Source: an uncultured Clostridia bacterium (GTDB lineage Bacteria > Aerophobota > Aerophobia > Aerophobales > AE-B3A). From it: DNA of 64,000 nt. Position numbers and translations under genes: made by a program. This document shows positions 2,421 to 63,720 of the stretch, in pieces (positions within the stretch are counted from its first letter, which is position 1; every line of letters starts with the position of its first letter). The notes under the pieces are model-generated. The model did no database searches. It was not told the origin of the DNA and worked only from the letters and a program-made list of their open reading frames with translations. Location of the stretch: positions 4,764 to 68,763 of the forward strand of contig CAZIXA010000008.1 in NCBI GenBank assembly GCA_964543295.1. Direction: 5' to 3'.

Positions 2421-2451
2421 GGGACAGACGATGTTGATAACAATTTTAAAT
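2421..2451. repeat. R-family repeat copy R1 (ggctcggggggacagacgatgttgataacaa)
   Basis: shares ..ggacgatgttgataacaa core with R2; upstream of MFS gene. Confidence 0.5.
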
Positions 2452-2608
2452 ATTCGCTTAAGACTTTCCAAAAATCAGGAATCAAAACACCTGCCCTTAT
2501 TTGGCCAGAGCGTCCGACTTTTTTGTTCCTTAGCTGGAGGGGTAATAATTTACAGAAGCGGCCATTTTTATATAATCTGTAAAAAACTATTTTTGGAGCA
2601 CTGCGGAA

Positions 2609-3790
2609 ATGGGGCAGTTCATAAAGATACACACCTTGGTGGTTTTATCATTCACTCATTTTGTCAATGATTTTTACTCTCTTTTGTTACCCATTTTTAT
2701 TCCTGTTCTGGTTCTCCAGCTTGGCATAGACTACTTTGAGGCTGGTATTTTGGTCGCCTCCGTGGCTATAATTGGTGCCATACTGCAGTCTCCAGTTGGA
2801 TACTGGGCGGATCGCTGCCGGAAAAGGGTTACTTTTATAGCTACGGGTTTTATCTTTTATGCTCTAGGAGCGATTATCCTTGGTTTAAGTAACGGATTCA
2901 GCCTTCTTCTCCTTTCCTCTTTTTTTATAGGACTTGCCACAACGACTTATCACCCTCAGAGCACCAATCTCATCACCAAAGAGTTTGCCAGGAGAGGTCA
3001 GGCTCTGGGTATTCATGGAGTGGGGGGTCAGCTTGGCAGATTCATCTCTCCTATTCTTATTGCCTGGCTTATCTCCAGATTGAAGTGGAGATTGGCAGCA
3101 ATAGTTCTTATCCTACCCGCATTTGCAGCTCTTATTTTGTGTTGGTCAACTCTGAGAGAACCCACGCAAAGAGGAGAAAAAGGTCTTGCTGGAACAATAA
3201 CCCTACCCATCTTTCTTTTAGTCTTAATTCTTGGCTTGAGGGGGGCGGTATTCCAGGGAATTATCTCTTTCTTACCTTCTTTTCTTATGGAGAAAGGTTC
3301 GCCTATTAGCATAGCAGGACTGCTTACAGGGATAATGCTGGGAATAGGTTTGATTGCTCAGCCTCTGGGTGGCATCATGGGGGATAGAGTTTCCAAAGGA
3401 AAGATAATCTTTTTAAGTCTTGTGGGGCTAACTATATTTTTTTTCTTTTTCCACTTTACAGTGGCATCAGTCGCAGGAGAATCCGCATTGAATTATGAAA
3501 TACTCATTGCTCTTCTTGTTGGAATAGGTTTTTGTATTTTTGTCACCTTTCCTGTGGGGCTTGCCCTCTCTGCTGAACTAACCCGCGGTGAAAGAGTGGG
3601 AACTTCAGTAGGACTTGTTTTTGGTGGGGGAATGGTATTATCAGCTCTTACCTTACCCGGGGTCGGTTACCTTATCGACAATTATGGATTTCAGACTGGA
3701 TTTACCCTTCTGGGGATTTTAGCGGCAGTAGCGACGCTGATTAGCGGGCTCTATATTAGGTTGGACTTGAAATGGCGTCAACAAGGGTAA
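2609..3790 (+). CDS. MFS-family transporter
   Basis: 393 aa, ~12 predicted TM helices, MFS-like loop motif GYWADRCRKR between TM2/3. Confidence 0.7.
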   Translation: MGQFIKIHTLVVLSFTHFVNDFYSLLLPIFIPVLVLQLGIDYFEAGILVASVAIIGAILQSPVGYWADRCRKRVTFIATGFIFYALGAIILGLSNGFSLLLLSSFFIGLATTTYHPQSTNLITKEFARRGQALGIHGVGGQLGRFISPILIAWLISRLKWRLAAIVLILPAFAALILCWSTLREPTQRGEKGLAGTITLPIFLLVLILGLRGAVFQGIISFLPSFLMEKGSPISIAGLLTGIMLGIGLIAQPLGGIMGDRVSKGKIIFLSLVGLTIFFFFFHFTVASVAGESALNYEILIALLVGIGFCIFVTFPVGLALSAELTRGERVGTSVGLVFGGGMVLSALTLPGVGYLIDNYGFQTGFTLLGILAAVATLISGLYIRLDLKWRQQG

Positions 3791-3862
3791 AAAAGATTTT
3801 GAAGCACAGGAAAATCTCAATCCAGACCTTTCGGTTGGGCTGGCTGGGCATAAAATAAAAAA

Positions 3863-3894
3863 GAGAATCTCTGTCAGGAATGACAGAGATTCTC
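3863..3894 (+). terminator. perfect 14-bp stem/GGAA-loop hairpin downstream of MFS gene
   Basis: gagaatctctgtca-ggaa-tgacagagattctc followed by agtttgaattattc; sits immediately before repeat R2. Confidence 0.45.
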
Positions 3895-3912
3895 AGTTTG
3901 AATTATTCAGAA

Positions 3913-3945
3913 TGGCTCCCCTGGCAGGACGATGTTGATAACAAG
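3913..3945. repeat. R-family repeat copy R2 (ggctcccctggcaggacgatgttgataacaa)
   Basis: near-identical to R3 and similar to R1/R4/R5; bounds the BrnTA cassette on the left. Confidence 0.6.
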
Positions 3946-4263
3946 AAATCCTTGCCAAGTGCAAAGGAGCAGAAATGCAAAAAGACACAGATTTTGACAG
4001 GTCCTCTAAATGTTCATAGAATATGAACCATAAGTTTATAAGTTGGTGGAAATAAAAGTGTTTTCCAGAACCAATTTATCGTAATTGGGAAGGCTATCCT
4101 TTTGTGGTTCTCGATAAGTTGGGAGGGGGAAGATAAGCGAATCTTGGAAGATACAGAATTATGGATAAGAAAGGGGAAAAAAGAAAGATTTTAGAAAGTG
4201 TAAGAAGAATAGGGTATGAGACGCAGATGGCATTATTATGAAGGCGAGAAATATAGATTTCAC

Positions 4264-4542
4264 TTATGCCCCTGTTTTGAGTTCCTCTTTTACCTTTTCG
4301 GCAAGATAGACTTTCATTAGAGACTGGTAGGGGATGTCTTTTTGATGAGCGATGTTCCTCAGTTGTTCAAATAGTCTTTCCGGTAGCCTAATTGAGATGT
4401 GTCTGGAAGAAGGATGCAGGTTGGGAAAATATGCTCTTTCTGCTTTTGACCAGTCAATATATTCAGTAGAATCATGGGTGCTCCAAAATTTACGTTCCTC
4501 ATCCTCGTTTTTAAATTTTGGTACCTTTTTTGATTTTTTCAT
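4264..4542 (-). CDS. brnA: BrnA-family antitoxin (CopG/RHH-like)
   Basis: 92 aa; BrnA-like motif STHDSTEYIDWSKA; overlaps upstream toxin gene. Confidence 0.6.
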   Translation of the reverse strand: MKKSKKVPKFKNEDEERKFWSTHDSTEYIDWSKAERAYFPNLHPSSRHISIRLPERLFEQLRNIAHQKDIPYQSLMKVYLAEKVKEELKTGA

Positions 4543-4825
4543 GGTATATCTTCCTTTCTTTTTTATTCATATCCCGCGCAGAAATAACCCTTATCCTTCC
4601 TCTTCGGATAATAAAAACAACAAAGAGAAAACGACCTTCGTTTGTTACACCTAAAGCAGAAATACGTTCTTCTTGAGGGAGTCCTCTCTTTTCTACTTTT
4701 GTTGTTATTGGTTCGTTAAAGAAAACTTCTTCGCATTCAAGATGGTGGACCCTGTGTTTATCCCAGTTTTTGTTTATATTACCTTCGTCCCACTCAAAAC
4801 TCTTAGATTCAGGAAAGGATTTCAT
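4511..4825 (-). CDS. brnT: BrnT-family ribonuclease toxin
   Basis: 104 aa; FEWDEGNINKNWDKHRV N-terminal signature of BrnT/UPF0125 toxins. Confidence 0.6.
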   Translation of the reverse strand: MKSFPESKSFEWDEGNINKNWDKHRVHHLECEEVFFNEPITTKVEKRGLPQEERISALGVTNEGRFLFVVFIIRRGRIRVISARDMNKKERKIYHEKIKKGTKI

Positions 4826-5133
4826 TCTCGTATATTTATATTATATACATTTTATGATTTGTCAAGACGCGTTAAGTCATACACAGACAAGGAGAAAAGA
4901 ATGCAATATTTTTGAAAACTATATTATATACTTTTGCCAAAGAGTAAAACTATCGCTTGGAGTAAAAAAATGATGGAATATCCAAACATTAGCAAAAAGG
5001 GAAATAATGATTCATTGCCCCAGAAATTAGCTGAAATATTACCAGATCTAAAAATTGAGAAGATGGAATTAGCCGATAGTAACAGCACTGTGGGAGGTTG
5101 GTATAAAGATTAAGGTTGGTCATTCTTCAATCT

Positions 5134-5162
5134 GGCTCCCCTGGCAGGACGTTGTTAGAACT
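5134..5162. repeat. R-family repeat copy R3 (ggctcccctggcaggacgttgttagaac)
   Basis: direct repeat of R2 on the other side of brnTA. Confidence 0.6.
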
Positions 5163-5764
5163 TTTTTGGAGGATCTAGAAGAAAAAATGGAGATTCCAAT
5201 CTTTGATATCCCACTCCGATGCGTGTGAAGACAACCTTAGGCCAAATCTCAGCACTTGTTAATCGGGGTCGGGGTCACATGATGGACAGAGATTCTTTCG
5301 AGTACTTTCCTAGCGGAGTCTGAGGGAATCCATGGTGGGATTGCGCTGATGTGGCCAGTGCAGTGATCCGGTGGTATGGAAATGCTCTTAAAAGAAGTAT
5401 TTCAGACACTGGCTCCCCGAGACCATCATAATACGAACCTACACGAAGTCATCATAAAAGGTCCCATAGTCAATCTATCCACGAATAAAGAAATCAAACA
5501 CTATTGTAGGAAGTTTAGTCATAAATTAGCCACAAAACTCTGCGGTTCTACTTAACTATAAGGATCTGTATTAGCAAGAAGCAACCTGTCTCCATTTCCC
5601 CCTTTTCAATTCAAGGTCATGTCCAAAATAGAGTTCATGCCCTCCTTCAATCATTACTATATCGTAAGTGAACTTTCCAATGGTTGACATTATTATTAGA
5701 AAAACTAATAATTACAATCGGGATTTTTATTTGACTTTGAGAGAATCGAAAGGAAAAGTGAACG

Positions 5765-11198: not shown

Positions 11199-11474
11199 AT
11201 GAACAAAGCAGAATTAGTAGAGGAAGTAGCAGGAAAAGTTGGACTGACAAAGAAGGAAACTAACAATGTAGTGGACGCTATAACGTCAGCCATTACTGAT
11301 TCTCTGGTAAGAAACGAAAAAGTAATATTGGTTGGACTCGGCACATTTGAAGTGAGGAGGCGAAAAACTCGGACAGGAGTTAATCCTCAAACTAGACAAA
11401 GGTTAGTTATTCCTGCGATGAATGTGGCTAGATTCAAAGCGGGAAAAGGATTAAGAGAAAGGGTGGGTAGGTAA
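11199..11474 (+). CDS. hup: HU-family nucleoid-associated DNA-binding protein
   Basis: 91 aa; MNKAELV...GFGTFEV..R..R.GRNP.T signature; SD aacaGGAGGtatt. Confidence 0.85.
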   Translation: MNKAELVEEVAGKVGLTKKETNNVVDAITSAITDSLVRNEKVILVGLGTFEVRRRKTRTGVNPQTRQRLVIPAMNVARFKAGKGLRERVGR

Positions 11475-11515: not shown

Positions 11516-11836
11516 ATGGATATCGATAGACGTAAACTATTAAGAACACTAATTACAGAGGATTTATGGAAAAGGCTATCTCCAGAAGAAGTTAGGCTAT
11601 ATCTTCTTCTTGTAATTTCTATTGATGAGACAAAGGAAATAGGGGAACTAAGAAAACGGGATATTGAGAAATGTCTGGGATATAGTCTAACTGTTGGGCA
11701 ATTAGAAAAAATTACCCATACTTTCCGAGAACTTAACTTAGCTGAGATAGAATATTCTAAGGAGAAATCAGAGGTAAAATTTACACTCGTGGGAAAGGAA
11801 TCCTCAGACGAGAAAAACTATTCAGGTCCCAGCTAA
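11516..11836 (+). CDS. hypothetical small protein (possible wHTH); 3' end encoded out-of-frame by HU-derived DNA
   Basis: 106-aa ORF between intact hup and HU 3' copy 2. Confidence 0.35.
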   Translation: MDIDRRKLLRTLITEDLWKRLSPEEVRLYLLLVISIDETKEIGELRKRDIEKCLGYSLTVGQLEKITHTFRELNLAEIEYSKEKSEVKFTLVGKESSDEKNYSGPS

Positions 11837-12095: not shown

Positions 12096-12389
12096 ATGAA
12101 TATTCTAGGGTGGGTAGTTTGGGCTGTCGCAATGTTCATATTTATTGTTCATATTTTCCTTTTTTTCCATTCTGACCCAGGCGTTAGTCGTCTTGCAAAA
12201 CGATTTAGTTTTTTAATTGCAATAGGGCTAGCCATTACAGCATTTACAAAATTATCGAAATTCCATCTCATCTGGTGGATACCTGTTGCATATCTTTTTA
12301 ATCTTTGGGCTTTTTCGGCAAGAGTTCAGCGAGACGCTAAAAAATTTATTGAAAAGCTTAAGGGAAGAAAACAGGAGACGCCAAATTAG
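12096..12389 (+). CDS. small two-TM membrane protein
   Basis: 97 aa, two hydrophobic helices, basic C-terminus; SD acaGGGGGttatt. Confidence 0.4.
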   Translation: MNILGWVVWAVAMFIFIVHIFLFFHSDPGVSRLAKRFSFLIAIGLAITAFTKLSKFHLIWWIPVAYLFNLWAFSARVQRDAKKFIEKLKGRKQETPN

Positions 12390-19605: not shown

Positions 19606-20553
19606 ATGAAATTACTGACAGGTAAAATTATTCCTATTCTGATACTCGTATTGGTTCTTTCTTGCCTCTCAGCTTATGCCAATGTTCAAATCATGAGCTA
19701 CAACGTCAAAGATTTCTGGCTGAGGTTTGATGGAGAATCTGGCAGCATGACAGATGAAGGCGCTGCATTAAACGAAAGAGATCTTGAAAGGCTCGAGGTC
19801 ATCGCTGGTGTTATTAATGAAAGGAAACCGGATGTTATCGGAATATTGGAATGTGCAAGCCTGGCTGAGCTGATATTCTTCAATGAGCGATTTTTAAAGG
19901 GGGAATACAGATGTTGGAGTTTTCGAGCTTACGACTCAAGAACTTTTGGGATTCCGCTTGGACTCATGGTAAAAAAGGATGTGCAAGTTAAATCAGTCGA
20001 TCTCGTTGAGCCCAGATCCTTTAGTTCTAGAGGAATTATAATTGCGGATATTGTAAAAGGTGATTACGAATTTACGCTATTCCTCGTTCATCTCAAATCC
20101 AAAATAGAACAAAAGTTAGGTGAATCAGCTCTTAAAAGAGATAGACAAGGAAATCGTCTTCGTGAAATAATAAAGGGAAAACTGGAAGAGAATCCTAATG
20201 CCAACATTATCATCTGTGGTGATTTCAATGATTCTCGTGGTCGGGATGATCAAGAAAAGGCTGCGGATGTGGAGGACTTAATAGGCAAAGTGGTGAAACC
20301 AATTATGCTAGGAGACAGGACACAAGTAGCAATTTACAGTTCCACCTTAGAGCATAAGGATCAAGACATAAATGGCCAATTATGGACGGAAAAAAGTAAG
20401 GGACATGCTCCAATTCAATTTGATTATTTCTTTCTCACGCAAGGTGCGAATGATGAATTCGTTAATCTAGATCATGTTTATCCAGAAGAATTTCAAAATA
20501 TACTTAGGGCGTCTGACCATATTCCCATTGTTTTGGATCTTCGGGATGAATAA
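19606..20553 (+). CDS. secreted endonuclease/exonuclease/phosphatase (EEP) family protein
   Basis: 315 aa; signal peptide; EEP motifs IMSYNVKDF, ILEC, ICGDFND, SDHIPIVLDL. Confidence 0.6.
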   Translation: MKLLTGKIIPILILVLVLSCLSAYANVQIMSYNVKDFWLRFDGESGSMTDEGAALNERDLERLEVIAGVINERKPDVIGILECASLAELIFFNERFLKGEYRCWSFRAYDSRTFGIPLGLMVKKDVQVKSVDLVEPRSFSSRGIIIADIVKGDYEFTLFLVHLKSKIEQKLGESALKRDRQGNRLREIIKGKLEENPNANIIICGDFNDSRGRDDQEKAADVEDLIGKVVKPIMLGDRTQVAIYSSTLEHKDQDINGQLWTEKSKGHAPIQFDYFFLTQGANDEFVNLDHVYPEEFQNILRASDHIPIVLDLRDE

Positions 20554-52217: not shown

Positions 52218-52519
52218 GAAGAGGCTACACAATGTTTAGAAAGGCGGTATGTTTAGTTTCTTTAATTGCTTTTTACGTTGCTGCTTTATTCTCATCCCTC
52301 TTTTTGGCCTACATAATCAGAGAAGAGATTCTTTTTTATATTCATCCTGCTTTCAGAATGACAACCTTTCCCTTTGAGACCTACCTGGTAAACTATCCTT
52401 ACTTTCTCGGTCTCTGGGTGGTGATTCTTGCTTATGAGAGCCTTTGTACCAAAAGATTTATCCTGGGAGAGGGAAAAGAGGATCAAAGAATTAAGAAGCA
52501 AAACAAAAAGCAGGATTAG
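52211..52519 (+). CDS. small membrane protein
   Basis: 102 aa, 2-3 TM. Confidence 0.3.
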   Translation: MGGRGYTMFRKAVCLVSLIAFYVAALFSSLFLAYIIREEILFYIHPAFRMTTFPFETYLVNYPYFLGLWVVILAYESLCTKRFILGEGKEDQRIKKQNKKQD

Positions 52520-52527
52520 AGGATTAA
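52507..52527. repeat. RAGGATTA octamer pair immediately upstream of wbaP start
   Basis: gcaggattagaggattaaag. Confidence 0.5.
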
Positions 52528-52531
52528 AGAG

Positions 52532-53977
52532 ATGAAGATACCCAAAAGTAAAAGAAGAATTAGGTTGCTTTATTTAGCTGTTGATTTTTTCTTTATCTTC
52601 CTTTGCTTTTGGTCTTTTTACTTTTACCGTTATTTTAAGGGGAATTTTTGGGATGGGGTTAAGTATTTCTTTTCCCCTCAGTTTAATTCCCTTCCCTTAT
52701 TTAATGAGTACCTCAGCTTATTTTTCTTCCTTTGTATTACCATTTTTTTCTCCCTTCAAAATTACGGGCTTTATGGAACAACGCGGGGACGTTCACTGAC
52801 CAATGAGGTATTTTGCGTCTTTAAAGCAGTTGCCTTTTCGAGTATGTTGAGTATCGCCCTTGTCTTTATAGCCAAATTTCACGGCGTTTCTCGCTTAGTA
52901 TTTTTTCAATTCGTCCTCTCCATAGCATTTTTTCTCTCCATCTGGCGAGTTCTTAAACGCTGGTATGTAGAAGATTTGGTAGCCTCGGGTTATAACAATC
53001 AAAATGTTTTAATCGTTGGAGCAGGGCAAGCAGGCAAGTCCTTAGCTCAGGAGTTGTCTAAGCAACAGCATCTAGGATTAAAAGTCATAGGTTTTTTAGA
53101 CGATCATAGAAAAACTGAAGAGCATACATCCAAAGGAAAAATATTAGGAAAGACGAGCGAGTTAGAAAGAATTGTTAATGAAAAATTTATTGATCAGGTC
53201 TCTATTACTTTTCCCCTACAGAGGGGATTAGCAAATAAAATAATATCCCAGGCAAGAAAGTTAGGAGTGGGAGTGAAGATAATACCCGAGTATTTTGAAA
53301 ACTCTACCAGTAGACTTGATATTAGTTATATAGGTAGGATTCCCCTTCTTGAATATTATGGTAAGCCTGAATTAGAAGCGGAATTGATGATCAAACGACT
53401 TATAGATATAGTTTTTTCTTTTGTGGGATTGTTGATTCTTTCACCACTTTTTATAGCAATAGCTATCTTAATTAAATTGGACAGTCCAGGGCCGATATTT
53501 TATGTTTCCCCTCGAATAGGAAGAAAAGGAAAAATATTTAAGTTTTACAAGTTTCGTTCAATGTATGCCGGTGCGGAAAAGGATTTAGATAAATTATCAG
53601 AGAGGAATGAAAAAGACGGACCTATTTTTAAGATGGAAAATGACCCTCGTGAAACTAAAATAGGAAGATTTATAAGAAAATATAGCATAGATGAGTTGTC
53701 ACAGCTATGGAATGTGTTAAAAGGGGATATGAGTCTGGTGGGACCAAGGCCTCCTACTCCTTCGGAAATAGACCGCTATAAAGATTGGGAATTAAAAAGG
53801 GTAAATGTAATTCCTGGTATGACCTCTCCATATGTAATTCAAGGGAGAAGCAATTTATCCTTCGGGGAATGGGTGAGGTCGGATCTTGATTATATTGAAA
53901 ACTGGTCCTTAGGGTTGGATTTAAAGATTTTATTAAAAACGGTGCCGGCGATAATAAAAGGGGAAGGAGCATACTAA
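52532..53977 (+). CDS. wbaP: WbaP/CpsE-type undecaprenyl-phosphate hexose-1-phosphate transferase (initiating PGT)
   Basis: 481 aa; N-terminal TMs, CoA-binding-like middle domain, bacterial sugar transferase C-domain (DLSQLWNVLKGDMSLVGPRP). Confidence 0.75.
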   Translation: MKIPKSKRRIRLLYLAVDFFFIFLCFWSFYFYRYFKGNFWDGVKYFFSPQFNSLPLFNEYLSLFFFLCITIFFSLQNYGLYGTTRGRSLTNEVFCVFKAVAFSSMLSIALVFIAKFHGVSRLVFFQFVLSIAFFLSIWRVLKRWYVEDLVASGYNNQNVLIVGAGQAGKSLAQELSKQQHLGLKVIGFLDDHRKTEEHTSKGKILGKTSELERIVNEKFIDQVSITFPLQRGLANKIISQARKLGVGVKIIPEYFENSTSRLDISYIGRIPLLEYYGKPELEAELMIKRLIDIVFSFVGLLILSPLFIAIAILIKLDSPGPIFYVSPRIGRKGKIFKFYKFRSMYAGAEKDLDKLSERNEKDGPIFKMENDPRETKIGRFIRKYSIDELSQLWNVLKGDMSLVGPRPPTPSEIDRYKDWELKRVNVIPGMTSPYVIQGRSNLSFGEWVRSDLDYIENWSLGLDLKILLKTVPAIIKGEGAY

Positions 53978-54039
53978 AAAAGCAGGATTAAAGGATTGGA
54001 GGGAAAAAGCAAAAAACTGAAAAGAAGGATTATAGGGGA

Positions 54040-54200
54040 ATGAAGCATGTAAAGGCGGTAATTTTAGCAGCCGGAGAGGGAACCAGAAGAGCTTGCGGGT
54101 AGAGGCATTGAGAGTAAATGACCCTACTATTGCCTTAGGAGTCAACACAAGGAAAGACCTTAGGCGAGTGATTCAGATAATGAAGGAGAAAAGGCAGCAA
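54040..54200 (+). pseudogene. internally deleted sugar-phosphate nucleotidyltransferase remnant
   Basis: MKHVKAVILAAGEGTR then frame break, resuming ..NDPTIALGVNTRKDLRRVIQIM (GlmU/RmlA-like C-terminal segment). Confidence 0.4.
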
Positions 54201-54275
54201 CTGAAAAGGCAGGATTAGAGGGATAGAGGATTAGAGGATTAAAAAGCAAGAAAAAGGCAGGATTAGAAAGATAGG
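54199..54275. repeat. array of RAGGATTA-like octamers
   Basis: ggcaggattagagggatagaggattagaggattaaaaagcaagaaaaaggcaggattagaaagataggatt. Confidence 0.5.
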
Positions 54276-58411: not shown

Positions 58412-58518
58412 TTTCTACACCTAAAATATCATAGATTAAATTTGTTATTTATAAATTTAACTGTTTTCGATATTGATTCAGTGTAAATTATTTCTACTCC
58501 TCTTTTCGTATTTCTATT

Positions 58519-59112
58519 GTGATGAAAAGAGGTGATTTATTGGAATGGTTGAAAAGATCTCCACGAAGAACAGCAGTTATAAAAGTAATGACAAAGCCTA
58601 AAATGCCTTCGGAGATTCACGAACAAGCTTCGAAAGGGGTTGTCTCTCTCAGTAACACATGCGAGATTCTAAAGGCATTGTTGGAAGAGGGTTTAGTAAC
58701 TTGTATCAATCCAAGGGAGAAAATTGGAAAGTTATATGGGCTCACAAAGACAGGGAGAGCGTTAAGAAAAAGGACATATCCTAATAAACCGAGTTATCAA
58801 GATATTCCCAACGACATTATGGAAGAGTATACCTACGTCGTACGGGGCAAGCATAGAAGGGCAGTAATTAAAGTAATTTATGATAGAAAAACACCTAGCG
58901 AAATACACAGGGATGTTGTAAAGGCCACTGAAAATGTATCTCCCGGCAGCATAAATTATGTAAAACTATCTCTCAATAGCACAAGCGATACCTTAAGGGG
59001 ATTTAGAAAGAAGGGTATTGCAATCTGCATCAATAAAGAAAAAAGAGTTGGAAGATTATATGAACTTACGAAGAAAGGTAAAGTGATAAGAGAGCAGATG
59101 CTGAGAGAGTAG
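58519..59112 (+). CDS. tandem-duplicated winged-helix DNA-binding protein (two ~95-aa repeats)
   Basis: repeats RRTAVIKVM.KP..PSEIH....G...KL.L and RRAVIKVIYDRKTPSEIHRDV.. ; divergent from the surface-protein gene. Confidence 0.45.
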   Translation: MMKRGDLLEWLKRSPRRTAVIKVMTKPKMPSEIHEQASKGVVSLSNTCEILKALLEEGLVTCINPREKIGKLYGLTKTGRALRKRTYPNKPSYQDIPNDIMEEYTYVVRGKHRRAVIKVIYDRKTPSEIHRDVVKATENVSPGSINYVKLSLNSTSDTLRGFRKKGIAICINKEKRVGRLYELTKKGKVIREQMLRE

Positions 59113-59445
59113 CTTGGCTCGACAAATTTCTACGAATTTTTTCTGATACAGAACAGATTTCTTTTTGATGAGTTTTTTTAAGAATACATTCCGTGTAAGT
59201 TTTTTAAATCATTAATATTACCACTTTAGAAAGAAAACACATCAGAGAAATGGTGAATCAAAATGTATGATGGCAATAAGCTGTACAGCCAATACAAAAA
59301 AGAAAAGGACGAACTTAAAGATCACCTTCCAGAATGGATTGGTATTCTGCAGGATTATTTTAGAAGAAACTATTATTCTTCATCTTCGAAACCCGGGGCT
59401 AAGAAAAGAAAAAGATAATGAATTCGAAATTATTTTGGCTCCAGC

Positions 59446-60783
59446 CTAAATCTCCATTAATTTCTTCGTCAAGCCAAGTTCTGAGAGAATCTCTGCCAAT
59501 TTCTTTACAGTCTTTGGATTTTTGGCTAAAGCAGTTATGATCTCATCAGAATTTTTCCTTTTCTCATCAAGCTCTATTGCGGTTTTTACATCTAGAACTT
59601 TGCTACATTTTTGGCAAAAAAGAGCGTCCTTAGAATTAATACCTCCACATGACTGACACTGTTTTGGTTTTAGAAGGCTTTCTTTTTCTTTTGTTTTCTT
59701 GATTCCGTGAATTTCCAGAATGGTGTTATTCACATCGCTTGAGAGAAGATGGGAATATTCAGAAAGCATCTTGCTTGAAGGAACCCAGCCAAAATAAACC
59801 TTGGCCTGGGCTTCGCTTATCTGTCTGTTAATCAAAAGATGAGTTACTCTCGTGTGCCGGAAGAGATGATGATAAAGCCTCTTTTTAATCTTAGCCTTTC
59901 TTTTGAGTCTTAGAATTAGTGCTCTAAAACTTCCGTATTTCATCTTTTCATTTTTATTTCTGTTTCCAGTCATAACCCATAAAGGAGATCGAGGATTATC
60001 TTTCCCGGGGTGCAGATTAAGCCAATTGGTAATGTAAGGATCAGATATAACTATTCTTGGAGTTCTATGACCAGTTTTTCCATTTAAATCAACTATGTAG
60101 CTATATCTATCTCTAGTAACGTCCTTGATTTGTAGAGAACCTATTTCTCCAATTCTAGCACCAAGTTCGTATAGCATAGAGACAAATGCTTTATCCCTCG
60201 GATATTCTGCAGCATCTATCAATCTTTTGATATCTTTTTCGGTGAGAATATCTGATGCCTGTACCTTTGGTTGATCCTTTTTCTTGACGTTGGTGTTAAT
60301 CCAACTTACAATTTTAGGATAATCATTTCTTTCTTTATAGTTATCTTTATACTTTAACCATTTGTAGAACTTCTTTAGTATTGCTCTATAGCCTTGCTTT
60401 GTCCAAACCGAATAATCTTCTCTTGATTCTATTTTGATAACAACTTCCTTTATATCTCTTTCAGTAGCTTTATCAAAATCCTTTTTCAGATATTGGCTTG
60501 CTAACATTAGGAGACTACTAATCAATTTAATTCTTCTGGGTTTGCTTAGTCCTTCTAAGAAACATGTCCTGTCAAAGTCTAAAATCAAATCTTTATTCTT
60601 TTCAGAGATGGTTGATTTCTTAACTCTTTCCAGAGCTGATTTATACTTAGTACTATAGTCATGGATATCTTTTGTAGGGATCATACTAATAGTGTAGATC
60701 CAACTAGTATATAAATCTTTCGGCTCTGAACTAGTTGTGCAACGCCCTGACCGGACGATGAACAACTTGTATGGATCCCACAA
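59446..60783 (-). CDS. tyrosine site-specific recombinase/integrase with C-terminal zinc ribbon
   Basis: 445 aa; R..HxxR..Y catalytic pattern (HHLFRHTRVT, ..KVYFGW); CQSCGG...CQKC. Confidence 0.7.
   Translation of the reverse strand: MWDPYKLFIVRSGRCTTSSEPKDLYTSWIYTISMIPTKDIHDYSTKYKSALERVKKSTISEKNKDLILDFDRTCFLEGLSKPRRIKLISSLLMLASQYLKKDFDKATERDIKEVVIKIESREDYSVWTKQGYRAILKKFYKWLKYKDNYKERNDYPKIVSWINTNVKKKDQPKVQASDILTEKDIKRLIDAAEYPRDKAFVSMLYELGARIGEIGSLQIKDVTRDRYSYIVDLNGKTGHRTPRIVISDPYITNWLNLHPGKDNPRSPLWVMTGNRNKNEKMKYGSFRALILRLKRKAKIKKRLYHHLFRHTRVTHLLINRQISEAQAKVYFGWVPSSKMLSEYSHLLSSDVNNTILEIHGIKKTKEKESLLKPKQCQSCGGINSKDALFCQKCSKVLDVKTAIELDEKRKNSDEIITALAKNPKTVKKLAEILSELGLTKKLMEI
60741..60775. repeat. 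R-family repeat R4, inside first 15 codons of integrase gene
   Basis: cgccctgaccggacgatgaacaacttgtatggatccc. Confidence 0.55.
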
Positions 60784-61189
60784 GACCGTTCGGTGAAATG
60801 CCCTACGAGGATACCCTAAACGTAATGAGTGTGCGAATGTTTCGGAGATTTCTCAAAAATGCAATTAGTTAGTTGGCTTGTTTCTGACATCGACGGTTAG
60901 GCAACTCTTTATCCATGAAACCTCGTCGAAAAACTCACGAAATGGCTATTTCACCTCTGTGTGACCGGGTGCTGTGGACGAACCTTACTATTATTTGTTC
61001 GGTGCTGTGACAAAATCCCTCTATCATAAGGAAGAAGGGTCTTACCTTGCATAAAGGTTTTTGCTTGGTTCAAACTGGGACCGCAGGAAGGCGTAAAAGA
61101 AGCTAAGGAAGTGTCAAAAGAATTTACGAGAAAATATTTTACACTGGGCCTATACTGAGAAACCTTGGAAAGAAGCAGGATATTTTGGC

Positions 61190-61225
61190 GCCCCTGACCG
61201 GACGATGAAGAAGTTCATAGATCCT
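61190..61225. repeat. R-family repeat R5, ~415 bp upstream of integrase start
   Basis: cgcccctgaccggacgatgaagaagttcatagatcc; encodes ..NFFIVRSG.. paralleling integrase KLFIVRSG. Confidence 0.55.
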
Positions 61226-61304
61226 AAAAGAATCTTCGGAAAATGCCTTGTTAAAAGGACTTCACCAAAAGATTTAAGTAATTTACTATCTGTCATAAAG
61301 CAAA

Positions 61305-62349: not shown

Positions 62350-62871
62350 TCACTGGGTCGTTGGCCGCTGTATTTTTTCCGTATTTGGAACACAGTTGGA
62401 AACAGCTCTAATGTAATATTGAAGCTTTCCTACCATTTGATGAGGCGCGGTATTACTTTTAGGAATATATGTGGCTACAAAACCTCTCCCTTTCTTGTTA
62501 ATAATGATAGGATGGTTTTTGACTTCGATACGAGGGGGAACTGTACATCCAGATACAGCGCCTTCGAGCCAACTAACAAATCTTTTGACATTTGTGATAG
62601 GGCATTTTGCTTTTGCCACATCCGCACTATCAAAATCTTTCGAGCAATCTATTCCCCAGACAACTACACCGCCCTCAGAATTGCCAAATCCTGAAATAGC
62701 TTTTGCAAGATTATTTCTATCATTCTGATTGAGGACTGTGCCGTCTCCATCGTCTTTGGAACGCTTAAAATCTAAAAACAACTCCTCAGACTGTCGAGTT
62801 GCGATAAATTCATTAATAGCTTTCTCGCCCTTTTCCACAATTCTTAAGAAAATATCTTCTGCTCTTTCCAT
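62350..62871 (-). CDS. AlbA_2 (Schlafen-like divergent AAA / putative DNA-binding) domain protein
   Basis: EELFLDFKRSKDD...LAKAISGFGNSEGGVVVWGID matches PF04326-type core. Confidence 0.5.
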   Translation of the reverse strand: MERAEDIFLRIVEKGEKAINEFIATRQSEELFLDFKRSKDDGDGTVLNQNDRNNLAKAISGFGNSEGGVVVWGIDCSKDFDSADVAKAKCPITNVKRFVSWLEGAVSGCTVPPRIEVKNHPIIINKKGRGFVATYIPKSNTAPHQMVGKLQYYIRAVSNCVPNTEKIQRPTTQ

Positions 62872-62910: not shown

Positions 62911-62951
62911 AGTCAATTATATACGAAATCAGCTTTTTGTTAAGTTTGAGG
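62911..62951 (-). promoter_or_regulatory. duplicated upstream element of AlbA_2 paralogs (copy 1)
   Basis: tcaattatatacgaaatcagctttttgttaagtttgagg vs 63681-63720 tcaattgtatacgaaattcgctttttgttaagtttgga. Confidence 0.4.
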
Positions 62952-63065: not shown

Positions 63066-63665
63066 TTAAAGACTAAGAGCCAGCGAAAGGAAAAGTGAGA
63101 TTGCAGCACCAATGAGCCCACCCAGCATCATGTTAAGAATCTTCGTTTTCCAACTGCGTGCCACGATGAGCTCATGGTTCAAAGTTTCGATAATCCTAGA
63201 AAGGCGTTCTACTTCTGTTCCTAGATCGTCTAAAGACTTTGTACGCTCTGCGATGCCCGAATAAAGAACCTGTGAGGTAATGGGCGCCATTCGGTCACCG
63301 AGTCGTTGAAGTACCTGGCCAGCAGCGAGATAGGGAGACTGAATTCCCTTCGGAATTGTGACGACCAAAACCGATTTGCCGTCAATGCTAATAGTCTCAG
63401 TTTTAACCTGTACGGACGGTGAAACCGCTTTGAGTGCCTGTTCAATTCGCAAGCGTGCACGGTCTACGCGGTGTAATCCTACAACGCTTCGGTCATCTCG
63501 CACGCCAACGACCAATCTGCCACCGTTTGTGTTGGCAAAGGCAGAAATGAGAACAGCTAGATGCCCTCTATCAGGCAAACGAGACTTAAATTCCAGCTCC
63601 GTACTTTCTCGTTGCTCAAGAAGCTTCTTTAGATCTTCTAGTTTCATATTACAGACATTCCTCAA
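63066..63665 (-). CDS. AlbA_2 domain protein with C-terminal TM helix (paralog)
   Basis: ESTELEFKSRLPD...LAVLISAFANTNGGRLVVGV; C-terminal LGGLIGAAISLFLSLALSL. Confidence 0.5.
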   Translation of the reverse strand: MRNVCNMKLEDLKKLLEQRESTELEFKSRLPDRGHLAVLISAFANTNGGRLVVGVRDDRSVVGLHRVDRARLRIEQALKAVSPSVQVKTETISIDGKSVLVVTIPKGIQSPYLAAGQVLQRLGDRMAPITSQVLYSGIAERTKSLDDLGTEVERLSRIIETLNHELIVARSWKTKILNMMLGGLIGAAISLFLSLALSL

Positions 63666-63680
63666 GCTGTATGTCGCCTA

Positions 63681-63720
63681 ACTCAATTGTATACGAAATT
63701 CGCTTTTTGTTAAGTTTGGA
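63681..63720 (-). promoter_or_regulatory. duplicated upstream element of AlbA_2 paralogs (copy 2)
   Basis: see copy 1. Confidence 0.4.

Follow-up and report, generated by a model that had tools for sequence, protein, structure and literature searches.

Short direct repeats around an MFS transporter gene and a BrnT/BrnA pair resemble attachment sites of a tRNA-targeting, Xer-like integrase family

We analyzed a 64,000-nucleotide (nt) stretch of DNA from an uncultured Clostridia bacterium (GenBank assembly GCA_964543295.1, contig CAZIXA010000008.1, positions 4,764 to 68,763; hereafter the window), in which a family of short direct repeats, R1 to R5, lies partly around two small groups of genes near the left end and partly beside a distant tyrosine integrase gene. 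From left to right, the first region contains a gene that reads as copper ATPase-like, a CsoR-like repressor gene (a Pfam Trns_repr_metal match among the Logan gene calls), R1, an MFS transporter gene (2609-3790, plus strand; Pfam MFS_1, 2.6e-48), R2, the brnA (4264-4542) and brnT (4511-4825) genes on the opposite, minus strand (Pfam CopG_antitoxin, 3.9e-32, and BrnT_toxin, 1.7e-22), R3, a partial repeat copy that we call R0 and, finally, a histidine kinase gene. The MFS gene is the cargo of the R1-R2 unit and the brnA/brnT genes are that of the R2-R3 unit. A terminator-like hairpin downstream of the MFS gene (3853-3904, plus strand; arms 3853-3876 and 3881-3904) stands just before R2, as an earlier, sequence-only reading of this DNA had noted.

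The five repeat positions given in that reading were borne out, and R1 to R5 all lie on the plus strand in the same orientation. Four can be written as 22-mers, R1 (2412-2433, TGGCTCGGGGGGACAGACGATG), R2 (3913-3934, TGGCTCCCCTGGCAGGACGATG), R3 (5133-5154, TGGCTCCCCTGGCAGGACGTTG) and R5 (61186-61207, TGGCGCCCCTGACCGGACGATG), while R4 has its core at 60741-60760 (AACGCCCTGACCGGACGATG). R0 is a sixth copy, additional to these, with a partial core on the minus strand (GGGGAGCCA; 5410-5418, in a site spanning 5410-5440) that is preceded by a decayed A-type arm, gtAGGTTCGtattatgatggtctc. The five repeats are genuine and far above chance: the degenerate core CCCTGNCNGGACGNTG has four exact matches in the window and six at up to two mismatches, compared to 0.33 expected from shuffled sequences, and R2 is identical to R3 at 21 and to R5 at 19 of 22 positions, an identity of at least 19/22 being expected 7.5e-4 times per window. 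A repeat search of the window independently recovered the R1/R2 (41 nt, 73% identity) and R2/R3 (35 nt, 86%) pairs. The similarity is mosaic, with R1 and R2 having a common right side (17 identical bases), R2 and R3 a common left side, and R4 and R5 a further 65 or so nt in common on the right, at about 70% identity.

The integrase gene (59446-60684, minus strand; Pfam Phage_integrase, 9.4e-18) is part of a conserved module (58464-61177, minus strand) that is 77-85% identical at the nucleotide level to loci L007-L014 and that also holds a winged-helix gene (58519-59112, plus strand; 197 amino acids) and about 490 nt of non-coding DNA upstream of the integrase; the flanks on the winged-helix side vary among these loci. 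An extra stretch of some 130 residues at the N-terminus and a zinc ribbon at the C-terminus characterize the protein, which falls below the cut-off of every NCBIfam model. Archaeal XerA is the closest curated model (XerA_Arch, 92.5 bits, cut-off 220), with lower scores for XerD (57.7 vs. 330), XerC (55.4 vs. 335) and integrase_gron (25.3 vs. 265), so that the protein does not score as a XerA, XerC or XerD chromosome-dimer resolvase. The nearest solved structures are XerC-like and XerA proteins (PDB 4a8e, 4e-12). Hundreds of homologues (roughly 675) exist at about 60% identity, in bins publicly labelled Nanoarchaeota, Woesearchaeota, Anstonellales (DPANN), Poribacteria, Omnitrophica and Latescibacterota, among others; no member of the family was matched in the IMG/VR viral contigs. 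We fetched 80 integrase-homologue loci for comparison. Many of the family copies (loci L007-L086) are on contigs of 1.4-2.7 kb, and the 58-66% protein identity seen across DPANN-labelled and bacterial candidate-phylum bins is compatible with either a cross-domain element or contaminated bins.

R4 had been placed within the first 15 codons of the integrase gene, a position that does not hold up. The open reading frame (ORF) on which it relied, 59446-60783, is a mechanical one that opens at a TTG; the true start is the ATG at 60684, whose methionine is near-invariant in 22 homologues, and stop codons interrupt the in-frame stretch upstream of it in distant homologues. R4 is therefore non-coding and lies 57-76 nt upstream of the gene. 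The 110 nt or so before the ATG are conserved in close relatives as strongly as the gene itself. The site (60685-60810, minus strand) reads ACAAGTTGTTCATCGTC / CGGTCAG / GGCGTTGCACAACTAGT, and a consensus drawn from 41 loci with an integrase identity of at least 57% consists of ACAAgTtGT..AcGTC, seven variable nt, GGCGTTaaACAAgTaGT, CGAAAGcTTTAtATAG and the ATG. Its two 17-nt inverted arms are complementary at 11.5 of 17 positions, compared to 5.7 in shuffled sequences. The arm end CATCGT is specific to the integrase of the window and its close relatives, most of the family having GACGT. This layout is the anatomy of a tyrosine-recombinase core site, and R4 is the integrase's own conserved attachment (att) site.

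The homologous loci also show where such a site recombines. In seven of them, ARAGORN identified a tRNA gene on the integrase strand that stops 55-85 nt short of the integrase (tRNA-Ser in L016, tRNA-Glu in L020 and L056, tRNA-Asp in L053 and L055, tRNA-Met in L069 and tRNA-Tyr in L071), and in L035 the alignment reveals a T-arm in the same place, cut off by the end of the contig. When these loci are aligned, the T arm and acceptor strand of the tRNA take the place of the outer arm, while the inner arm and the integrase are unchanged. Locus L020 contains both ends of one 5.1-kb element in tRNA-Glu: the tRNA gene, the integrase, a cargo that includes a GNAT enzyme and a Fic/Doc toxin, and then, 5.1 kb downstream, a far end (acaacatctcagacgt/CCGTTCCCGGCATTTAA) in which the outer arm is joined to 17 nt that repeat the tRNA 3′ end, in every respect a displaced 3′ fragment of the tRNA gene (tDNA). 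The two ends of L020, together with the tRNA adjacency in the other loci, therefore indicate that the variable centre and GGCG of the site copy the target's T-stem 3′ strand, acceptor 3′ strand and discriminator.

R5, R3, R2 and R1 have the form of this far end (attR-type), in which the end of an outer arm leads into a tRNA-like 3′ end. On the minus strand, the R5 junction (61186-61255) consists of a 65-nt arm, about 70% identical to that of R4 and ending in ttcttCATCGT, followed by a T-stem strand CCGGT, an acceptor strand CAGGGGC, a G and CCA. The R3 arm ends in tctaaCAACGT and continues with CCTGC, CAGGGGA, G and CCA. At R2 (3913-3944; cttgttatcaaCATCGT / CCTGC CAGGGGA G CCA / ttCTGAATAATTC), an arm ending in tatcaaCATCGT is followed by a tRNA-Asn-like 3′ end and a P′-like start. 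R1 (2412-2443; attgttatcaaCATCGT / CTGTC CCCCCGA G CCA / ctaacaat), whose arm also ends in tatcaaCATCGT, is the terminal copy and adjoins the host csoR/copA genes. R0 keeps only the decayed arm and the final bases of the core. Following the CCA, R0, R2 and R3, as well as the related loci L002, L006 and L088 described below, continue with (C/T)TGAA, the start of a region that we call B. R1 lacks this P′-like CTGAA and abuts host DNA, as expected of the last junction in a tandem array.

To identify the likely source of these ends, we searched with a constructed query, in which a generic T arm was joined to the core of R2 and only the last 16 bases are informative. The best full-length matches were mostly annotated as tRNA-Asn, with some tRNA-Arg. 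The 3′ end of a tRNA-Asn of Caulobacter phage CcrSC, CCTGCCTCGGGAGCCA (GCAGGTTCGAATCCTGCCTCGGGAGCCA), is identical to the end of R2 at 14 of 16 positions. Matches to the R5 end, rebuilt in the same way, were split between tRNA-Arg and tRNA-Asp. These similarities suggest that the ends of R1-R3 may derive from tRNA-Asn. On this reading, the source genome would be expected to contain a tRNA-Asn ending in CCTGCCAGGGGAGCCA or in R1's CTGTCCCCCCGAGCCA, and a tRNA ending in CCGGTCAGGG(G)CGCCA.

A scan of 185,579 species genomes with TGGCNCCCCTGNCNGGACGATG gave only five matches, of which L002 (labelled Pirellulales) and L006 (labelled Clostridia) are real relatives, with 33 bases identical to R2/R3; L003-L005 are at chance level, and L003 proved on inspection to be a ribosome-binding site and gene start. 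The similarity of L006 to the window continues for about 88 nt on the right of R3 (5133-5220, region A) and for about 187 nt on the left of R0 (5237-5418, region B). On the minus strand of the window, the R3 core and region A, on the P-arm side, occupy 5133-5228, and region B, on the P′-arm side, occupies 5229-5409, is 75% identical to L006 and carries at its far end a 30-nt motif, TTAACAAGTGCTGAGATTTGGCCTAAGGTTGTC (5228-5265). In the orientation of the integrase, which is the minus strand of the window, A-core-B is one unit of about 290 bp in L006, L088 and L002. The order in the window is core(R0)-B-16 nt-A-core(R3), a circular permutation of A-core-B. This is the relation expected between attP and the integrated form of an element, and the window thus seems to hold a mini element consisting of its arms only, the usual size of attP being about 250 bp (PMC4383910). 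Region A is joined at one identical point to differing left flanks in L088, L089 and L090; in L090, what reads as an excisionase-like helix-turn-helix gene comes after the A arm. Comparison of the A-core-B unit with plasmids and phages by BLAST gave no match, and scans of viral contigs for the core and the 30-nt motif were empty. Upstream of its core-A copy, L090 (1-1200) also contains what reads as the C-terminal end of an integron-integrase-like gene (...THALNRGGRGV...) and an attC-resembling sequence ending in GTTAGAT.

The explanation that we favour, and consider fairly probable, is that the repeats are att sites of integrative elements whose Xer-like tyrosine integrase family targets the 3′ ends of tRNA genes, and that the MFS and BrnT/BrnA units are remnants of serial insertions. 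R4 would be the attP-type site of the integrase itself, with imperfectly inverted arms of about 17 bp and a 7-nt centre, ending 57 nt upstream of the ATG, in which the centre and the bases that follow would be a copy of the target's T-stem strand, acceptor strand and discriminator. Recombination with the tRNA gene would place the tRNA beside the integrase and displace the original tRNA 3′ end to the far end of the element, fused to the outer (P) arm; R5, R3, R2, R1 and the decayed R0 would each be such a hybrid. On the minus strand, the array would then read [decayed arm]-R0-(B...A)-R3-(BrnT/BrnA unit)-R2-(MFS unit)-R1-host, that is, small elements stripped of their integrase and arranged head to tail: an arms-only mini element, the BrnT/BrnA unit and the MFS unit. 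In tRNA-gene islands, both tandem arrays and displaced pieces of tDNA are well established (PMC4383910). None of the three units between R0 and R1 carries an integrase gene, and all are very small, at 1.2-1.5 kb, with one reduced to its att arms (about 290 bp). It should be noted that the integrase in the window is unlikely to recombine R1-R3 with R4, since the crossover sequences differ (CCTGCCA in R2/R3 vs. CCGGTCA in R4). Of the earlier idea of cassettes bounded by recombination sites, what remains is that the sites are of the kind used by this integrase family and that the units look serially inserted; the integron model attached to it does not. Furthermore, BrnT/BrnA forms a two-gene unit, and orientation varies among the units. 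We infer that R1-R3 arose by the action of an integrase and that the tRNA gene anchoring the array was later lost.

Several observations weigh against this explanation. ARAGORN found no tRNA gene in the window, nor did Rfam, and no tRNA remnant was detected beside R0; the attL expected to anchor the R0-R1 array is therefore missing. The 22-mers of R1 and R2 differ at seven positions (15/22 identical) despite their identical arms, and a single target is no simple explanation for this. R4 is an intact attP-type site on what is apparently a chromosome, the core of R5 has one G more than that of R4, and what R5 adjoins is not host DNA but the middle of the P side of the integrase element itself; 9 nt after the CCA of R5, homology to the P side of L013 and related elements resumes. 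The integrase element may therefore be inserted, in tandem or rearranged. A second att copy was sought in the close relatives L007-L013 and none was found, the extra copy R5 being present only in the window. Lastly, region A is coding-like, with 6, 3 and 13 differences from L006 at the first, second and third codon positions, respectively, so that a small repeated gene could account for part of the repeats.

The 30-nt motif at the end of region B, ATTGACAAGTGCTGAGATTTGGyyTAGGTTGTC, occurs in the window at 5228-5265, in L010 between 7229 and 11163 and in L088 at 222-242 and 822-842, and might act as promoter, operator or recombination site. In L010, a copy stands after each of the three single genes (adenosine deaminase, Ser/Thr kinase and DUF4062) that come directly after the integrase module, and in L088 two copies enclose an RDD gene. 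Of the close relatives L007-L013, only L010 has repeated cassette-like motifs of this sort in its cargo.

These arrangements bring us to the alternative that survives best, an integron-like capture platform in which an intact docking site is kept by the integrase and small circular units of one or two genes, each with the tDNA-like site at its borders, are inserted and shuffled, the R0-R1 region being an orphan array. The units between repeats do hold one or two genes, the A-B unit between two cores resembles an empty cassette, R4-type sites are found intact beside the integrase on long contigs with chromosome-like genes, and the motif that also ends region B comes after each of the L010 genes and lies on both sides of the L088 RDD gene. 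We nevertheless judge this alternative unlikely. The integrase is not IntI, falling far short of the integrase_gron cut-off as given above, the repeats have no attC-type hairpins, and 56 kb separate the array from the integrase; the crossover sequences differ, and the units are in mixed orientation. In addition, the 30-nt motif has a single copy in the window and was not seen in the other close relatives, and neither circular nor empty-site forms were observed. The integron-like array of the sequence-only reading, with no attC palindromes and no adjacent integrase, was thus not upheld. A broader form of the idea seems to us less likely still, namely that the Xer-like family as a whole, in candidate-phylum bacteria and DPANN, runs such a platform, with a tDNA-mimicking docking site kept beside the integrase and R0-R1 as an orphan stack. 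Its cargo may then be tiny circles of one or two genes (defence-like, toxin-antitoxin or transporter), bounded by such sites or by the 30-nt TTGACAAGTGCTGAGATTTGG motif, and A-B may be an empty cassette.

The repeats might also be a small dispersed intergenic repeat containing a tRNA-like segment, akin to a miniature inverted-repeat transposable element (MITE) or repetitive extragenic palindrome (REP), with the enclosed genes being ordinary host genes. Consistent with this, the A-core-B unit of about 290 bp is intergenic in unrelated metagenome-assembled genomes (Clostridia and Pirellulales labels) with no integrase within reach, and R2 directly follows a terminator-like hairpin. However, the copies in the window are confined to the two places described and are not the many dispersed copies of a REP or MITE, three of the five matches in the species genomes are at chance level, the CATCGT-core signature is common with the integrase's own site (19/22), and the circular permutation and swapped flanks are arranged like junctions. 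We therefore think this improbable. Least probable of all is an origin of the repeats as pieces of a small protein-coding gene that was duplicated, the plus-strand ORF ...WLPWQDDVRTFLEDxEExxEIPxYEIPx plus stop, with the likeness to the integrase site being secondary: changes in region A do fall mainly at third codon positions, and L006, L088 and L090 conserve the peptide, but it has no Pfam or NCBIfam family, the ORF is only about 41 amino acids long, with its upstream part broken by stops in the window and L006, only its first codons are common to R1 and R2, and differing left flanks are joined exactly at the core, which argues for recombination rather than gene duplication. The plus-strand ORF itself (5133-5228), which crosses the att core and is ended by region A as WLPWQDVVRTFLEDLEEKMEIPIFDIPLRCV and a stop codon, closes with the conserved acidic peptide QDDVRTFLEDAEEEIEIPxYEIPx; a minus-strand peptide, NIVLPGEP, was rejected because the codon-position pattern favours the plus-strand frame.

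We also looked for comparable strains. The only other contigs recovered with these proteins derive from the same sequencing run, SRR14802573, and cover the window's own stretches. An empty site was sought through homologues of the flanking histidine kinase; the nearest are 73% identical, are not syntenic, have only the downstream Trk operon in common with the window and show no tRNA upstream.

Elsewhere, the window looks like a bacterial chromosome and contains several other repeats and genes. Between 11378 and 13908 a 97-nt repeat and a 78-nt repeat each occur three times (61-83% identical), at the ends or starts of small ORFs (including 11199-11474, 11516-11836 and 12096-12389) that resemble a small tandem gene family. 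A low-GC cluster of polysaccharide genes and a Type ISP restriction enzyme lie between 20.6 and 58.4 kb, a region that may be variable or acquired; four AAAAGGCAGGATTAGAGG-like repeats of 23-33 nt (52505-54274) surround the sugar-transferase gene that ends the polysaccharide cluster. An endonuclease/exonuclease/phosphatase-family gene (19606-20553) has homologues (71-79% nucleotide identity) in L012 and L013, 2-3 kb beyond the integrase module and in the same relative orientation, compared to 38 kb away in the window. Two paralogous Schlafen/AlbA_2 genes (62350-62871 and 63066-63665, minus strand) are each preceded by a 36-nt repeat (62913-62948 and 63683-63718, 92% identical). L007, L010, L012 and L013 also have this repeat, 2-4.5 kb upstream of their integrase, and the L013 copy includes TTGACA-N17-TATAAT-like boxes.

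If the repeats are indeed att sites of this family, the MFS transporter and the BrnT/BrnA pair would be recently acquired cargo rather than core genes, and the repeats would pinpoint the recombination sites of an integrase family for which no curated model exists. The combination of fixed arms with a variable centre that copies the tRNA would make the target of each family member easy to predict, and the small integrase-less units would illustrate the decay of elements into cassette-like pieces, in one case down to two att arms. The process as such, with tRNA-targeting elements and tandem scars, is already known; little has been described of the integrase clade, and remnants this small are unusual.

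Among known systems, the locus can be compared with the tRNA-gene islands catalogued by Islander (PMC4383910). In both, a tyrosine integrase lies beside a tRNA gene (here in the homologous loci), attP copies the 3′ part of the tRNA with the crossover where T stem and acceptor stem meet, the element ends are marked by direct repeats of the tRNA end (here in L020), and serial insertion gives arrays. The window differs in having no intact tRNA gene and only tiny, integrase-less array units, and its integrase belongs to an Xer-like clade with a C-terminal zinc ribbon. Integrons and clusters of attC sites lacking an integron integrase (CALINs) likewise have a tyrosine recombinase and short direct-repeat sites that bound small units, including toxin-antitoxin pairs. 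In contrast to these, the integrase here is not IntI and the sites are not attC hairpins: no imperfect palindromes of R″/L″ and L′/R′ boxes were found at R1-R3, the repeats being asymmetric, and the hairpin after the MFS gene is the one strong inverted repeat near them. The array is also not beside the integrase or an attI/Pc region (R1-R3 at 2.4-5.2 kb, integrase at 59.4-60.7 kb), and its units carry their own signals in mixed orientation. Archaeal XerA and related proteins (PDB 4a8e and 5hxy; PMC8371274) are the closest sequence relatives of the integrase, but the score is far below the XerA cut-off, the N-terminal extension and zinc ribbon set the protein apart, and the site is tRNA-derived and located beside the gene rather than at a chromosomal dif. 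SSV-type integrases resemble it in having an att site very near the 5′ end of the gene, the mechanical ORF here spanning the site, but differ in that the conserved start is downstream of the site, with in-frame stops between the two in distant homologues. We accordingly rejected an SSV-type split integrase, given the conserved start at 60684 and the stops upstream of it, and the integrase of this family is indeed intact next to the tRNA in both L016 and L020.

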